DNA of 64,000 bases from Spheniscus humboldti (lineage: Eukaryota). The stretch is taken from NCBI GenBank assembly GCA_027474245.1, contig CM049899.1, forward strand, positions 1,148,536 to 1,212,535. Reading direction: 5' to 3'. Of this stretch, positions 21,190 through 41,346 are shown piece after piece (within the stretch, counting starts at the first letter, position 1; each line of letters begins with the position of its first letter). The notes beneath the pieces are model-generated. The model was not told where the DNA came from. It did no database searches and was given only the letters and a program-made list of their open reading frames with translations. Position numbers and translations under genes: made by a program.

Positions 21190-21835
21190 TCTCCTGCCCC
21201 ACAGGGAAGCGTTCAACCCCTCAGCGAGGTGTTCTGCCCTGCGGCAAGGTGGTCTCCTGCCCTACGATGAGGTCTCCTTCCCCCCTGCCTCCACCTCCCC
21301 CCGTCCCCCCAGCCCTGTGGCAAGTTCGCCTGCCCCACAGCAAGCTTTTCTACCCCACGGCAGGGTCCCCAGGCATCCCAACCTGTGGTGAGCTCCTCTG
21401 TCCCATGGTGAGGTCTTCTGCCCCTTCCCCAGTGACCCCATCTGCCCAACGGCAAGCTTTTCCTACCCTGTGCCAAGGTCTACCCCACCATGAGCCCTGT
21501 GGTGAGGTCTTCTGCCCCACTCCAGCAAGCTTATCCGCCCCACAGTGACCTCATCTGCAGCTTTTCCACCCTGTGGTGAGGTCTCCCACCCCACCATGAG
21601 CCCCATGGTGAAGTCTGCTGCCTGTCCCCGCCCCCCCCGATGAGCTTATCCCCCCCACAGCAATCTCTTCTGCCCCACAACAACCTCGTCAGCCCCATAG
21701 CTAGCTTTTCCACCATGTGGCAAGGTCTCCCACCCCACAGTGAGCCACAACAAGTTGTTCTGTCCCACAGCAAGCTCATCTACGCTCTGGGAAGGTCTCC
21801 TGCCCCACAGTGAAGTCTCCTGCCCCATGGAAGAC
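21190..21835 (+). repeat. ~20-22 bp minisatellite (unit TGCCCCACAGYRAGGTCTYC), about 30 copies, ending in the MVP start-codon unit
   Basis: The read units are 'tgccccacagcaagcttttc', 'ctgtcccatggtgaggtcttc', 'tgccccacagtgaagtctcc' and 'tgccccATGGaagaccctg'. The final unit carries the MVP initiator ATG at 21827. Confidence 0.85.
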
Positions 21836-21945
21836 CCTGTGATCCGCATACCCCCCTACCACTATGTCCATGTGCTGGACCTCAACAGCAATGTCACTCG
21901 CGTGCAGGTTGGGCCCCACACCTACATCCAGCAGGATCATGAGAG
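21827..21945 (+). CDS. MVP: MVP coding segment 1 ([39 protein letters not shown] + ag)
   Basis: It matches the human MVP N-terminus [42 protein letters not shown]. The ATG is in 'ccccATGG'. The donor is AG|gtgggt at 21945/21946, phase 2. Confidence 0.9.
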
Positions 21946-22139
21946 GTGGGTGCTATGGGACGGGGGGATACCTATGGGTTGAGGGGGTCCATTTCCTACA
22001 TCTGGCAGGACCAAAAAAGGTGGGTGCTGTGGAACAGGAGGGGTTCTATAGGATGATGGGTGCCACCCCTATGTCTGGCAGGACTACAAAATGTGGGTGC
22101 TACAGGGCAGGGGGTGGATTTATATGGCTATAGGGCGAT

Positions 22140-22545
22140 CTAGATTTATAAGTGTGGGGTCTCTGTAGGGCTGTGGGGGGTGTTTGGGGGGGCTCTGTAG
22201 GGCCATGAAGGGCTTGAGAGGATCTGTGGGACCGTTGGCACTCTTTAGGGCTGGGGGGATGCTGGGGGGCTCTTTAGGACTATGGGGACTCTACGGACCC
22301 TGGGGGACATTGGGGTTGTATAGGGCCATGGGGGTGTTTGGGGGCTCTGTAGGGCCATAGGGTCTCTATAGGGTCACAGGGATTCCATAAGGCTGCAGAG
22401 GGTCATAGGAGAACTGGGGGACTTGATGGGCTTTATAGGGCCCTTGGGGGTTCTACAGGGCTTTATAGGGCTTTGGGGGTTGGGGAGGGTGGTGAGCTTT
22501 GTAGGGCCCTGGGGGCTCTATAGGTCCGAAGGGAGCAACGCGGGC
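22140..22545. repeat. MVP intron minisatellite, GGGCTCTRTAGGGCC family (reverse complement of the CTATAGCTCC family)
   Basis: Repeated 'ggctctgtagggccat', 'ctctatagggtcac' and 'ggctttatagggc' units are read directly. Confidence 0.8.
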
Positions 22546-22555
22546 CCGCCCGCAG

Positions 22556-22751
22556 GGTGATGTTCGCCCCCAGGTGCATGGTGATGGTGCCCCCACGGCA
22601 CTACTGCGTGGTGCTCAACCCTGTGGCCCGGGGCCCTACGGGGGCCGTGCTGGTCGATGGAGCAGGGCAGGCCCGTCTGCGGCACGCCGACCTTGATATC
22701 TGCCTGGCCCAGGAGCCCTTCCCCCTATACCCCGGGGAGGAGATCCAGCAG
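22556..22751 (+). CDS. MVP: MVP coding segment 2 ([65 protein letters not shown])
   Basis: The acceptor is cccgcag|G and the donor cag|gtacct. It matches human [23 protein letters not shown]...[22 protein letters not shown]. Confidence 0.9.
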
Positions 22752-22769
22752 GTACCTGTAGCCCCCTAT

Positions 22770-23460
22770 AGCAGCCCCAGGGCTCCCTATAGCTCCTCTA
22801 ACCCCACCATGGTCCCCTATAGGCTCCATAACCCCTCTCTGTAACCCACCACTGTAGTGTTCCATGGCCACTTATAGCTCCTCTAATCCCTGTCATCTCT
22901 CACAGATCCTATAGCCCATATAGCTCCCTGTGCCCCCTCCCAGCTCCTATAGCTGCCTCATCCTCCCCCCATTGCTCCTATAGCCCCCCCCCCCCCCAGC
23001 CTCCTATAGTCCCCAGCATGTTAACTCTGTCCCTTCTCCGAACCTGTGTACCTGTCCCCAGGGTGTCCCTGCAGTGTCCTCTGTTCCCAGGGTATCACCC
23101 GTGTCCCCCATAGTGTCCCCCCATCCCCAGGCTGTCCCTGACATCCCTTGTAGTGAAAACCTGTGTCCCAGTCCCCAGGGTTTCACCCCCCATGTCCCAT
23201 GCCATCACCCCTGTGTCCCCCTTGCCTCCGCAACCCTGTCATGACTCCCATGTCCCCACATCCCCCATTGTGACACCCCCAGATGCTTCCCCACATCCCC
23301 TGCAGTCACCCCCCCCATGGCACCCATGTCTTCGGCCATGCTGCCTGTGTCCCCAGGGCATCTCCCAAAGTGCCCCCCGCACCCCTTGTCCCCACGTCCT
23401 CCATACCTCTGCTGTGACACCCATGTCCCCAGCGGATTCTCCCTCAACCTCGCGTCCGTG
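22770..23460. repeat. MVP intron 2 minisatellites: a CTATAGCTCC family (22770..23005), then a poly-C tract and GTCCCC/ATCCCC-rich repeats
   Basis: 'ccctatagcagcccc', 'ctcctatagctgcc' and 'cctcctatagtcccc' are followed by ccccccccccccc (22987..23001) and 'tgtccccagggtgtccctg...' units. Confidence 0.8.
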
Positions 23461-23469
23461 TGTCCCCAG

Positions 23470-23593
23470 GGCGTCACCCCACTGCAGGTGGTGCTGGCCG
23501 ACACTGCTCTGCGCCTGTGGGCCCTGCTTGACTTCAAGGACGAGGATGGGAACAAGTTTGTGGCAGGAGACGAGTGGCTCTTCGAGGGTCCTG
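23470..23593 (+). CDS. MVP: MVP coding segment 3 ([41 protein letters not shown] + g)
   Basis: The acceptor is tccccag| and the donor cctg|gtgagc. It matches human [41 protein letters not shown]. Confidence 0.88.
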
Positions 23594-23666
23594 GTGAGCA
23601 TGGGGGTCACCCCCTTTTGGGGACACCCTGGGGGACCCATGGGCTGACGGTGCCACCTGCCTGCAG

Positions 23667-39639: not shown

Positions 39640-40085
39640 TCCCTCGTGTCACCTCATGTCCCACCAGGTTCCTCCTGTGTCCCCATGTCCCTCCAGCACA
39701 CCTTCCAGCTGGAGATCAAGATCAGCACTAACTCCCAGGTCTCTGTGTCCCTTTTGTCCCCAGATGTCCCTCCATGTCCCCCATGCCCCAGCATGTCCTC
39801 CATAACTCTTATGTCCCGCCAATATCCTCCAGTGTTTTCTTATGTCTCCCCATATGCCCCATGTTGCCATATGCCCCTATGTCTCTCCATGTCCCCCCAT
39901 ATCCCTCATGTCCCTAAATGTCCCCTATGCCCCCCATGTTCCCCATACCAATCATATCCCCTCATGCTCCCTACATCCCCCATATCCTCAATATGCCCAG
40001 TTTCCCCAACGTGCCCCCACATCCTTGGTGTCTCCCCACACCCCCAACATCCCTCGTGTCCCCCCCGCCCTTGGTCCCTGTTCCC
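39640..40085. repeat. MVP intron 12 'catgtcccc' minisatellite, including a decayed copy of the exon 12 3' end with a donor-like site (39690..39745)
   Basis: 'ctccagcacaccttccagctggagatcaagatcagcactaactcccag|gtctct' corresponds to exon 12 'ctgcagcgcagtgtccagctggccattgagatcgccaccaactctcag' ([16 protein letters not shown] against [16 protein letters not shown]). Confidence 0.7.
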
Positions 40086-40087
40086 AG

Positions 40088-40204
40088 GCACGAGGCAGAG
40101 CGGCTGGCGCAGGAGGCCCGGGGACGCCTGGAGCGGCAGCGCCTCCTGGACCAGGCAGAGGCCGAGCGGGCGCGCAGAGAGCTGCTGGAGCTTGAGGCCC
40201 TCAG
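40088..40204 (+). CDS. MVP: MVP coding segment 13 ([39 protein letters not shown] + ag)
   Basis: The acceptor is gttcccag|g and the donor ctcag|gtcggc. It matches human [38 protein letters not shown]. Confidence 0.92.
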
Positions 40205-40388
40205 GTCGGCCATCTTCCCAACATGCACTGCCTGGGAGGCGCGCAGGTCCTCTACCTGCCCGCAGGCACGGGGGATGGGCACTGGGGTCCTCCACCTTCC
40301 CGGGGGCATGGGGCAGGGTGGGTGGGGTTGGCGGTGGGCGGGGCCCATGGTGGACGGGGCATGTGACTCTGCTTCCTCCCCGCCTCAG

Positions 40389-40515
40389 CGCAGCAGTGGA
40401 GAGCGCGGGGGCGGCCCGGGCGGAGGCGCAGGCCCGGGCAGAGGCTGCCCGCATCGAGGGCGAAGCCGCCATCCTCCAGGCCAAGCTGAAGGCTGAGGCC
40501 ATTGCCATAGAGACG
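40389..40515 (+). CDS. MVP: MVP coding segment 14 ([43 protein letters not shown])
   Basis: The acceptor is gcctcag|c and the donor agacg|gtgcgg. It matches human [43 protein letters not shown]. Confidence 0.92.
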
Positions 40516-40649
40516 GTGCGGGGGGCTGGGGGGGAGAGTCATGTGGGGAGGCAGGGCCTGCCCAGGGGAGGTGCCCCAAGCAATAGCCCCGCCTCTGGGA
40601 GGCAGAGTGGTGAGGTGGGGGCGTGACCCGATGGTGTCCCCGCCCCCAG

Positions 40650-40838
40650 GAGGTGGAGCTGTCGCGGCTGGAACGGGCGCAGGCCCAGGAGGTGCGGGCC
40701 CAGCGGGCGCGGGGGGAGGCAGAGGCGGAGCGGGCCCAGGCACTGGCAGATGTGGAGGCCTCGCGAGCGCGGGAGGTGGCGGCCGCCCTGGGGCCCGAGA
40801 CCATCCGAGACATCGCCCGGGCGGGGCCCGAGCTCCAG
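40650..40838 (+). CDS. MVP: MVP coding segment 15 (EVELSRLERAQAQEVRAQRARGEAEAERAQALADVEASRAREVAAALGPETIRDIARAGPELQ)
   Basis: The acceptor is cgcccccag| and the donor ctccag|gtgagg. It matches human [37 protein letters not shown]...AIGPSTIRDLAVAGPEMQ. Confidence 0.88.
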
Positions 40839-40844
40839 GTGAGG

Positions 40845-41200
40845 GGGCGGGGCCTGGTGGGCCGGGGCCCCGGGGGGTGCAGCTAGGGGAGGGCTCAGGG
40901 GGGCGGAGCTAACTAGAGGGGGTGATGCCTGAAGGAGGCATGGCCACCTGGAGGGGTGGAGCCTGTAGCAGGGTGCAGAGGTGGAGCCTTGGCTGGGGGT
41001 GGGGTCTCTGGAGTGGGTGGGGCTTTGCTGGGCATGGCGCCTCTGGGCTGCCGGCAGGGGTGGAGTCTTGAGGACATGGGGTCTCCATGGGTTGGAGCCT
41101 CTTGGCAGGGGTGTGGCTCGAGGGTGCAGGGGGTGTTGGGGTGGGGTTTGCTGGAGGGCGTAGCCTGCCAGGAGGAGTGGCCAGCATTGTGACTGCCCCC
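40845..41200. repeat. MVP last-intron repeats (ggggtggagcc...gcaggg units)
   Basis: 'aggggtggagcctgtagcagggtgcagaggtggagccttggctgggggtggggtctctggagtgggtggggc...' is read directly. Confidence 0.65.
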
Positions 41201-41202
41201 AG

Positions 41203-41346
41203 GTGAAGCTGCTGCAGGGCCTGGGGCTGCAGTCCACCCTCATCACCGACGGCACCGCCCCCCTCAACCTCTTTGCCACTGCCCGGGGGCTGCTGGGGCT
41301 GGCCCCTCCCCCAGAAGGCTCCGCCCCCCAAGGCCCCACCCTCTGA
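41203..41346 (+). CDS. MVP: MVP terminal coding segment ([47 protein letters not shown])
   Basis: The acceptor is tgcccccag| and the stop is TGA at 41344..41346. It matches human [39 protein letters not shown]. Confidence 0.9.

Follow-up and report, generated by a model that had tools for sequence, protein, structure and literature searches.

The described systems closest to the repeats of the avian MVP gene come from birds and from man. Exon stuttering was reported in 115 chicken genes, which lie mostly on dot chromosomes (Hron et al., 2026, Genome Biol Evol, PMC12954441). In these genes, as in MVP, introns are filled by local, imperfect tandem blocks that are each tens to hundreds of bp long, and lateral parts of exons are copied into the neighbouring intron together with the adjacent donor or acceptor, the coding exons remaining intact. 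In both cases the source sequence lies at the exon border, copy numbers range from 1 to tens, and the genes are GC-rich and carried on very small chromosomes, as judged for MVP from the chromosomes of its orthologues. MVP is not named in the text or the searchable supplementary text of that study, which concerns recent, polymorphic events in chicken, whereas the MVP copies are partly orthologous across orders. MVP also differs in that palaeognaths have a 155-bp array that has undergone homogenisation with the real exon, and in that the flanks of the window (the whole 64-kb stretch of DNA that was analysed) are neither repeat-rich nor GC-rich.

An arrangement of this kind is known from human F7, intron 7 of which contains a 37-bp VNTR that begins with an element lying across the boundary of exon 7 (Borensztajn et al., PLoS Genet 2006, PMC1557585). 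The identical downstream pseudo-donors of this IVS7 minisatellite remain silent, since splicing selects the donor furthest upstream, and its splicing behaviour was tested experimentally (PMC1557585). As in F7, the first unit at MVP exon 1, at exon 12, and at exon 2 of ostrich and emu comprises the exon end and the authentic donor. However, F7 involves a single junction, a shorter unit and a mammal, whereas MVP also possesses acceptor-side arrays. Under the Rogers model, which Hellsten et al. reportedly took up in Nat Commun in 2011, introns are said to be gained via tandem duplication of an AGGT-containing exon segment. By analogy, tandem duplication in MVP would likewise add a splice site, and the duplicated segment would presumably be spliced out, but no new intron arises and an existing one is merely lengthened. 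Tandem exon duplication, including that of mutually exclusive exons, reportedly concerns complete exons that retain both splice sites and the reading frame, as Letunic et al. are said to have described in 2002. MVP shares with it the presence of exon-like sequence in the adjacent intron, but the MVP copies are exon edges only, 25-82 nt long with one splice site each; every copied segment is a partial exon, and whole-exon copies number zero.

In the window, MVP forms an intact open reading frame on the + strand (21827-41346), with 16 coding exons encoding 854 aa and ending at a stop codon. Exons were located by tblastn with a human MVP sequence as query, followed by splice-site reading and in-frame translation. 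They lie at 21827-21945 (exon 1), 22556-22751 (exon 2), 23470-23593 (exon 3), 23667-23798 (exon 4), 24933-25027 (exon 5), 25947-26183 (exon 6), 26942-27067 (exon 7), 27549-27707 (exon 8), 28671-28921 (exon 9), 38225-38422 (exon 10), 38906-39044 (exon 11), 39418-39629 (exon 12), 40088-40204 (exon 13), 40389-40515 (exon 14), 40650-40838 (exon 15), and 41203-41346 (exon 16). The closest database match of the encoded protein is gull MVP, at 93% identity, and the Vault and MVP_shoulder Pfam domains were found on its homologues. All 15 intron positions (15/15) are common to turtle, where the introns are short, introns 2 and 12 for example measuring 73 nt. The GC-rich, microchromosome-like setting proposed in the earlier note agrees with the GC-richness of the gene and with the very small chromosomes that carry its orthologues (4.8 Mb in ostrich, 3.3 Mb in emu, 1.7 Mb in duck). 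The flanks of the window are AT-rich and carry transposable elements (TEs), unlike described chicken dot-chromosome euchromatin.

The introns of bird MVP consist mainly of local tandem repeats, and five exon edges have given rise to repeat units that combine a piece of exon with its splice site. Along the window, repeated tiles make up 37-81% of tiles at 20-30 kb and 38-40 kb and ~0% elsewhere, and local repetitiveness is restricted to the MVP gene; in introns 1, 2 and 4-12, the repeated share of tiles per intron lies between 30% and 93%. The five best exon-to-intron matches score 54.0, 48.3, 45.4, 36.8 and 35.4 bits, and each lies in the intron next to its exon. As a chance control the introns were dinucleotide-shuffled 100 times; the best match then averaged 28.9 bits, with a 95th percentile of 34.1 and a maximum of 41.1 bits, and the copies score above these controls. 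The significant matches are all proximal, on the same strand and the correct side, and start or end at the exon border. On sequence grounds, the exon-edge copies are supported as genuine decayed duplicates, splice sites included.

Substantial filling by exon-derived units is confined to TE-free intron 9, and most intron repeats are purely intronic; the proposal that the units filling the introns are exon-edge copies is thus upheld at several edges and not as a general rule. All features given here and below lie on the + strand. The first pseudo-units of intron 9 (29031-29199), recognised by blastn, direct-repeat families D3-D6 and gull orthology, are U0, which is weak (29031-29067), and U1. 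The latter consists of an intron-like part (29085-29140) and an exon-10-like part (29141-29199) and has lost its acceptor AG; its positions 29144-29195 match exon 10 nt 3-54 (85% over 52 nt, 54.0 bits, blastn). The first half of U2 (29200-29271) runs from an intron-like part through the acceptor tgttgtAG into 13 nt that resemble the exon, where an endogenous retrovirus (ERV) cuts the unit, and its exon-10-like second half (36251-36310) is matched once the ERV is removed. Rejoined, 29259-29271 and the second half align with exon 10 nt 2-65 (48.3 bits), and the gull counterpart is uninterrupted. U3 (37963-38120) contains an intron-like part, ggtctggcAG and exon-10-like sequence at 38080-38120, of which 38080-38116 matches exon 10 nt 22-58 (81% over 37 nt, 35.4 bits). 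The real terminal unit (38135-38283) runs from the 3' end of intron 9 across the authentic acceptor to about nt 60 of exon 10. Intron 9 therefore holds three clear pseudo-units, one weak unit and the real exon, because the segment 36265-36320, counted in the earlier note among at least four copies of the exon 10 acceptor, the real exon included, is the second half of the ERV-split unit and not a separate copy.

The ERV (29272-36250) is young and was delimited by its LTRs (29272-29857 and 35660-36245; 586 bp, 4 mismatches) and a 5-bp target-site duplication, TGGGT. Its Pol ORF is intact (1043 aa), and the element is not present at the gull orthologous site, which is seen empty. A 5'-truncated CR1-like LINE fragment (36311-37962), which carries a reverse-transcriptase remnant identified by an RVT_1 match and has the tail ...ATCCTATGA, is common to gull, where the sequence runs on into the same element. 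Both insertions stand apart from the repeat phenomenon, and in TE-free intron 9 the window is collinear with gull across the pseudo-units.

Exon 12 has been copied on both sides, as the earlier note had described. In intron 11, an acceptor pseudo-copy (39228-39313; ~38 nt of intron, ccctAG, 47 nt of exon) pairs with the real sequence at 39380-39465 at an offset of 155 bp, the exon part being 84% identical (45.4 bits), and it has orthologues in gull, duck and cuckoo and five copies in emu. In intron 12, a donor-end pseudo-copy followed by GT (39690-39741; real counterpart 39567-39631) matches exon 12 nt 150-199. A deletion has removed 14 nt from it, whereas its gull and duck orthologues have kept the full end and GT. 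A further case, absent from the earlier note's list, is a 74-bp unit that spans the exon 1 donor in three copies (21921-22137; local alignment score 32 over 66 nt). The real copy (21921-21986) contains 25 nt of exon, GT and then intron, the decayed copies lie at 21995-22060 and 22068-22137, and the exon 1 donor junction tiles are significant in the window and gull.

Upstream, an acceptor-like minisatellite with the core TGCCCCACAG occupies 21190-21840 in about 20-30 degenerate units, as determined by autocorrelation and a unit list. Its final in-register unit, AGTCTCCTGCCCCATGGAAGACC, has the same first 13-14 nt as the unit before it, and the array reaches as far as the start codon, with TCTCCTGCCCCATGG as its last unit; beyond the ATG, similarity to the unit is weak. 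The array and its last unit are thus as previously noted, with a period of 20 bp (lag 20, z = 11.3) instead of ~21. An array lies upstream of the MVP ATG in 7/7 birds and is absent upstream of the turtle ATG, which is preceded at 5 nt by the acceptor ccccccccag.

In the arrays of introns 4, 5, 6, 8 and 10, exon similarity was not detected. The intron 5 array (25057-25925) comprises ~13 units of 62-70 bp with the core CTGCACCCATGGGTGAYRAGGACC; it fills the intron but begins ~30 nt past the exon 5 donor, at which the earlier note had placed its start, and exon 5 sequence was not found within its unit. Ostrich intron 5 measures 82 bp and that of emu 85 bp, and in the ostrich intron, the one of the two that was read, the core motif occurs once; the window array is therefore an expanded ancestral mini-intron. 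The CCTATAGCTC-type array of intron 8 (27731-28102, detected by TRF) is likewise purely intronic, and a motif census showed its CTATAG-core motif occupying parts of introns 1 and 2 as well.

Across birds, orthologues of the copies are present in gull, duck, cuckoo and emu, and copy number and presence vary by lineage. Near-identical exon 2 donor-edge copies number 25 in ostrich and 16 in emu, and all (25/25 and 16/16) retain GTACCT. Copies are 97.7% (ostrich) and 96.6% (emu) identical to their own exon, as against 92-93% across species, which suggests that homogenisation of these young arrays acted on entire units together with their intron part. Cuckoo also has copies of the exon 10 donor, and emu of the exon 8 acceptor; in ptarmigan no exon-edge copies were found. 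Several copies are orthologous across orders (window, gull, duck, cuckoo and probably emu) and so look ancient, some appearing older than the bird-order splits. Some junctions are affected in distant lineages alike: copies of the exon 12 acceptor are found in emu as well as in neognaths, and those of the exon 10 acceptor in the window, gull and duck. Such recurrence could reflect hotspots instead of shared ancestry. Among old copies the acceptor AG is kept in only some: in gull the exon 12 acceptor copy reads GC instead, and 4/7 duck exon 10 acceptor copies have lost AG.

The simplest reading is that pervasive tandem duplication acts on small GC-rich introns and that only partial-exon copies are tolerated. 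Such introns would have grown repeatedly as sequences were duplicated in tandem on the spot and the arrays expanded, with replication slippage, unequal exchange and non-crossover gene conversion as plausible generators. Of the mechanism put forward earlier, slippage or unequal exchange fits the within-species homogeneity of the ostrich and emu arrays; its seeding at junctions is not supported. Breakpoints would fall more or less anywhere, and where one lay in an exon and the other in the adjoining intron, a partial exon with one splice site would arise beside the intact exon. Since it has no partner splice site, such a copy would not be defined as an exon, would be removed with the intron and may thus be tolerated, and duplications that break up an exon or insert an entire further exon out of frame would be eliminated. 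The real exon forms the end of the array, being the last copy in acceptor-side arrays and the first in donor-side arrays. Old copies would decay like the remaining intron, and the near-identity of young arrays would be maintained by ongoing unequal exchange or conversion.

Alternatively, exon boundaries could preferentially start duplication, through splice-signal polypyrimidine tracts, co-transcriptional R-loops or stalling at GC-rich exon edges, and exon edges would then be the source of the intron arrays. Copies at no fewer than five junctions of one gene, the different junctions hit in ostrich, emu and cuckoo, the acceptor-like 5' unit and the several purely intronic arrays that start <60 nt from a donor are in keeping with this. 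Yet in the TE-free gene, divided into 60-nt tiles, a significant local paralogue is found for 64% of intron-only tiles, 12% of junction-spanning tiles and 4% of exon tiles, a 5-fold deficit of junctions relative to introns (odds ratio 0.077, P = 1e-12) that could partly reflect detection or array growth, as interior units amplify and boundary units are confined to the array edge. The depletion holds in every bird tested (32/342 junction vs 3427/5069 intron tiles pooled over seven birds), and most arrays have no detectable exon similarity. Ancestral introns measured 70-500 bp, so that any array necessarily lies near a junction. Seeding at exon/intron junctions, by which the earlier note had set these arrays apart from ordinary random minisatellites, is accordingly improbable.

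Slightly less probable still is that the copies are kept as decoys with a splicing role, such as U1/U2AF recruitment to a weak exon, regulated unproductive splicing or poison exons. The perfectly conserved GTACCT donors and the persistence of pseudo-exon 12 copies across bird orders would suit such a role, as would the exon 12 donor copy of the window, which is flanked by AG and GT and, at 42 nt, would be in frame. However, donor uniformity in ostrich and emu is accounted for by entire units having been homogenised recently, some gull and duck copies have lost their splice dinucleotides, and copies vary among lineages, down to none in ptarmigan. Between window and gull, the pseudo-exon parts show no significant excess conservation over the rest of intron 9 (92.9% vs 88.4%, P = 0.17). 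Arrays collapsed, expanded or mis-joined in assembly are very improbable: GC-rich tandem arrays are error-prone and the large ostrich and emu copy numbers could be imprecise, but independent gull, duck, cuckoo and emu assemblies hold orthologous copies at the same positions, which excludes assembly error as their source, the window has no Ns, and the ERV has clean LTRs, a target-site duplication and an empty site in gull.

Under pervasive tandem duplication, exon-edge copies would be the minority of arrays, those that crossed a boundary by chance in ancestrally tiny introns. The pattern in MVP very probably represents sequence stuttering, including exon stuttering, and the gene is a further example of that known phenomenon, the mechanism itself not being new.

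In chicken, "sequence stuttering" denotes introns full of imperfect tandem blocks, and in "exon stuttering" a lateral portion of an exon is duplicated along with its splice site (Hron et al., 2026; PMC12954441). Exon stuttering was recorded for 115 genes with 236 affected introns, of which 190 belong to dot chromosomes; more than 90% of the sources are no further than 1 base from the border of the exon, and there are 1 to 44 copies (PMC12954441). The pattern of exon-edge copies in the MVP introns of the window is a case of this already described phenomenon and reveals no new mechanism. 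The name MVP is absent from the text and from the searchable supplementary text of that study, and a literature search pairing "major vault protein" with "minisatellite" found nothing.

MVP comprises 16 coding exons on the + strand (21827-41346), with an uninterrupted open reading frame (ORF) to 41346 and AG and GT at all splice boundaries (the exon 7 end being 27067). The exons were found by tblastn, using a human MVP sequence as the query, and then by reading of the flanks; among database proteins, MVP of the black-headed gull is the closest (93%). Despite the intron repeats, the coding exons are unaltered, the ORF being intact and every splice site kept, as is also the case in chicken stuttering. 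Intron 9 reaches 9.3 kb only because two transposable elements sit in it, and measures 672 bp without them. The first is a young endogenous retrovirus (ERV; 29272-36250) with 586-bp LTRs (29272-29857 and 35660-36245) that differ by 4 mismatches and with a 5-bp target-site duplication, TGGGT. The ERV is near-intact, encoding a Gag-like ORF of 705 aa and an intact Pol of 1043 aa with reverse transcriptase, RNase H, and integrase domains. It is inserted inside a pseudo-exon 10 unit, and the orthologous gull site is without it. The second element is the reverse-transcriptase remnant of a 5′-truncated CR1-like LINE (about 36311-37962), which is common to the window and gull and is therefore an old insertion. 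Another CR1-like reverse-transcriptase remnant lies upstream of MVP (13101-14711; a 536-aa ORF with an RVT_1 domain), and matches recurring at 57068 and 63974 suggest a further LTR element downstream.

When the exons alone were searched against the window by blastn, five significant non-exonic matches were obtained, the remaining matches being vault-repeat paralogy between exons or noise. Exon 10 is matched within intron 9 at 29144-29195 (exon nt 3-54, 85% identity), 36254-36302 (nt 17-65, 76%), and 38080-38116 (nt 22-58, 81%). Exon 12 is matched in intron 11 at 39263-39306 (nt 1-44, 84%) and in intron 12 at 39690-39739 (nt 150-199, 74%). The intron 9 copies, which belong to direct-repeat families, also extend into the sequence preceding exon 10, taking in some 50-60 nt of intron, thus the repeat unit spans the junction. 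Copying starts at nt 1-3 of the exon for exon 10 and at nt 1 for the exon 12 acceptor, with the intron part alignable too; the alignment of the exon 12 acceptor copy runs from -38 in the intron to +47 in the exon at an offset of 155 bp. As with chicken exon stuttering, the source is therefore a border segment of the exon, and the splice site and a stretch of intron are copied along with it. The earlier note had counted at least four copies of the exon 10 acceptor edge, the real exon among them. Junction-spanning copies are indeed present, but the one placed at 36265 is not independent, as it belongs to a unit that begins near 29200, reads tgttgtAG followed by AGTGGTGCTGGGT, and is interrupted by the ERV. 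Rejoined after removal of the ERV, this unit matches exon 10 nt 2-65 with 48.3 bits. TRF missed the intron 9 unit of ~110-145 bp in sequence freed of transposable elements because the copies are too diverged, and the units were instead parsed from the direct-repeat families and by eye.

The exon 12 acceptor copy in intron 11 and the exon 12 donor copy in intron 12 are both as first described. The donor copy is followed by GT and lacks 14 nt relative to the orthologous gull and duck copies; in gull, it extends to the exon end. Between tccctccAG and GTctct, this copy measures exactly 42 nt (39697-39738), which, if spliced in, would add 14 codons in frame and without a stop. A junction absent from the earlier note is the exon 1 donor, where the first copy of a 74-bp unit comprises the last 25 nt of exon 1 and the donor and is repeated at 21995-22060 and 22068-22137. 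All copies are limited to 25-82 nt of a single exon edge, and none is a complete exon with both splice sites and a preserved frame. This distinguishes the pattern from tandem whole-exon duplication and from mutually exclusive exons.

The similarity to exon edges exceeds what base composition would produce. When the introns were dinucleotide-shuffled 100 times, the top exon-to-intron match had a mean of 28.9 bits, a 95th percentile of 34.1, and a maximum of 41.1. The top five real matches score 54.0, 48.3, 45.4, 36.8, and 35.4 bits, so that all five lie above the 95th percentile and three above every shuffle. Each of the five also lies in the intron next to its exon, shares its strand, and is on the correct side of it. 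Proximal partial copies above a shuffled-intron control are likewise a feature of chicken stuttering.

Comparison of MVP across birds, a check that the earlier note had proposed, covered the loci of gull, ostrich, cuckoo, duck, ptarmigan, emu, and one turtle, with 16 of 16 exons mapped in each. Exon-edge copies are orthologous in other birds, while their number and location depend on lineage. The exon 12 acceptor copy is orthologous across the window, gull, duck, and cuckoo, and emu carries five such copies with the same exon-side end. Orthologous exon 12 donor copies are found in the window, gull, and duck. Chicken stuttering involves extensive variation of intron length within the species; for MVP, intron lengths differ greatly between species. 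Exon 10 acceptor copies occur in the window, in gull (three), and in duck (seven), and intron 9 of the window, once freed of transposable elements, is collinear with that of gull across U0-U2, its first pseudo-exon 10 units. Since copies are orthologous in other birds' loci, an assembly error as their source is excluded. Part of the exon-edge pattern appears, from these alignments, to be older than the splits between bird orders. The turtle introns are short, e.g., 73 nt for introns 2 and 12. In turtle intron 7 (6719-6984 of that locus), four weak matches (65-74%) to an internal part of exon 8 lie in the intron preceding it, which may be a faint non-bird analogue or chance.

Large arrays are found in intron 2 of ostrich and emu, where the exon 2 donor edge is tandemly repeated in 25 copies (7283-11243 of the ostrich locus) and 16 copies (5124-7605 of the emu locus), respectively. 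The unit, with a period of about 155 bp, consists of the last ~80 nt of exon 2, the donor, and ~73 nt of intron, and every copy in both species retains a GTACCT donor. The copies are 97.7% identical to their own species' exon in ostrich and 96.6% in emu, compared with 92-93% between species, and they side with their own exon at four of five diagnostic sites. Being closer to their own exon than across species, the copies imply recent amplification or concerted evolution, to judge from sequence identity. The possibility that the arrays drive coding change in exon 2 is rejected: the duplicated part is 93.9% identical between ostrich and emu, the CDS mean is 95.3%, and the protein is identical there.

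The earlier note read the copies as seeded at exon/intron junctions by a process other than random minisatellite formation. This was examined with 60-nt tiles in 20-nt steps, each aligned locally to intronic sequence within ±1.5 kb and counted as repeated if its score exceeded the 99th percentile of the same search with the reversed tile. In the window without transposable elements, a local paralogue was found for 64% of intron-only tiles, a repetitiveness in imperfect blocks of tens to hundreds of bp that again resembles chicken stuttering, for 12% of junction-spanning tiles (odds ratio 0.077 against intron tiles, P = 1e-12), and for 4% of exon-only tiles. With seven birds pooled, 32 of 342 junction tiles and 3427 of 5069 intron tiles are repeated, and the direction is the same in each species. 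Junction seeding is therefore not supported; the process saturates the introns, and the exon-edge copies are a minor side product of it. Local repetitiveness in the 64-kb window is restricted to MVP and about 2 kb upstream and is about zero in the flanks; stuttering here is thus confined to the gene rather than regional. The flanks (1-18000 and 42000-64000) are 36-50% GC and essentially without local tandem repeats, and the repeat-saturated gene body is 57-69% GC.

Many of the MVP arrays contain no exon sequence, with TRF periods in the window of 10-95 bp. The intron 5 array had been described as starting right at the exon 5 donor. An array of about 13 units of 62-70 bp does exist, but its onset is about 30 nt past the donor. 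Its unit resembles the donor of exon 5 (TGACAAGG) and the beginning of exon 6 (CCTGCACC..GGG..A.C..GG, 16/22) too briefly to be told from chance, with no blastn match to either at E < 1, and the array is therefore not classed as derived from an exon. Arrays with a CTATAG core are found only in introns 1 (21946-22555), 2 (22752-23469), and 8 (27708-28670); of the 24 CTATAG sites in the window, 21 fall within MVP introns. On the + strand, introns 2 and 8 show the core as CCCCTATAGC, and intron 1 has a G-rich, complement-like version of it. The motif is found at these three places in gull, duck, ostrich, and emu, too (up to 106 copies), but not in turtle. The C-rich arrays of introns 4 and 5 give a GC skew of -0.33 over 24000-26000, and introns 1, 9, and 10 are G-rich on the same strand, thus there is no consistent transcription-strand bias.

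Upstream of MVP, the array described as ending at the start codon is confirmed, with a period of 20 (z = 11.3) rather than 21 bp. Its last unit gives TCTCCTGCCCCA, directly before and into the ATG, and similarity past the ATG is weak. The array is present in all seven birds, window included, and absent from turtle, in which the ATG follows the exon acceptor by 5 nt. Emu has ACG (2196 of its locus) at the canonical start (21827 in the window), which is ATG in all other birds examined, and its annotated protein begins at an upstream ATG within the 20-bp array. N-terminal extensions translated from this array also occur in the gull, hoatzin, ostrich, and ptarmigan models. An upstream non-coding exon, sought in the window through the ptarmigan model, gave no clear match.

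Between the window and gull, the pseudo-exon parts show no significant excess conservation (92.9% against 88.4% in the surrounding intron, P = 0.17), and the acceptor AG has decayed in some copies and some species. Apus isoforms X2 and X3 differ at the C-terminus only and are uninformative on the use of decoy sites. A crane MVP isoform (P0009) has an odd exon 11 region.

The earlier observation is thus largely right, and more general than first seen. The best-supported reading is that local tandem duplication and array expansion would be pervasive within small GC-rich introns, presumably through slippage, unequal exchange, or conversion. Events crossing a boundary would be tolerated only if they duplicate part of an exon together with just one splice site, because such a copy would not be definable as an exon and would leave the transcript with the intron. 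The real exon would necessarily be the terminal unit of its array, and old copies would decay as ordinary intron while active arrays remain homogenised. The MVP orthologues of duck, emu, and ostrich lie on chromosomes of 1.7, 3.3, and 4.8 Mb, which would fit a dot-chromosome setting, but those of gull and cuckoo lie on chromosomes of 9.6 and 16.6 Mb. The classic single-locus precedent is the human F7 intron 7 minisatellite, whose first unit spans the exon 7 boundary and whose identical pseudo-donors remain silent, as splicing selects the donor lying furthest upstream (PMC1557585). A first unit with the exon end and authentic donor, followed by pseudo-donors, is likewise seen at the MVP exon 1 donor (three copies), at the exon 12 donor, and in the ostrich and emu exon 2 arrays. 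In contrast to intron gain by tandem duplication, no intron position is new in MVP, turtle and birds sharing the lengths and boundaries of its exons.

A further proposal, considered unlikely, is that the exon 12 acceptor and donor copies, the exon 10 acceptor copies, the 5′ acceptor-like array, and the CTATAG arrays have been stable in position since before the Neoaves-Galloanserae split, and partly since before the palaeognath-neognath split. Exon stuttering would then not be only a recent, polymorphic instability, and the exon 2 donor arrays of ostrich and emu would be undergoing concerted evolution that includes the real exon, their terminal member. Real exon edges would in that case share long-lived conversion tracts with decoys, and these could have gained a role in splice-site choice or in 5′UTR or start-codon use.

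Exon stuttering at MVP is documented here in Spheniscus humboldti and six more bird species, palaeognaths among them, with some copies that look tens of millions of years old and others that look freshly homogenised. The added value is modest and lies in the cross-order orthology of some copies, the palaeognath concerted evolution, and the confinement of repeats to the gene body. For annotation, the arrays yield runs of decoy splice sites and upstream ATGs, and in several public MVP models the N-terminal extension is translated 5′ array. MVP is a clean test locus for multi-junction, multi-species exon stuttering outside chicken, and arrays with 16-25 identical donors offer a natural experiment for asking how splicing singles out the authentic one.
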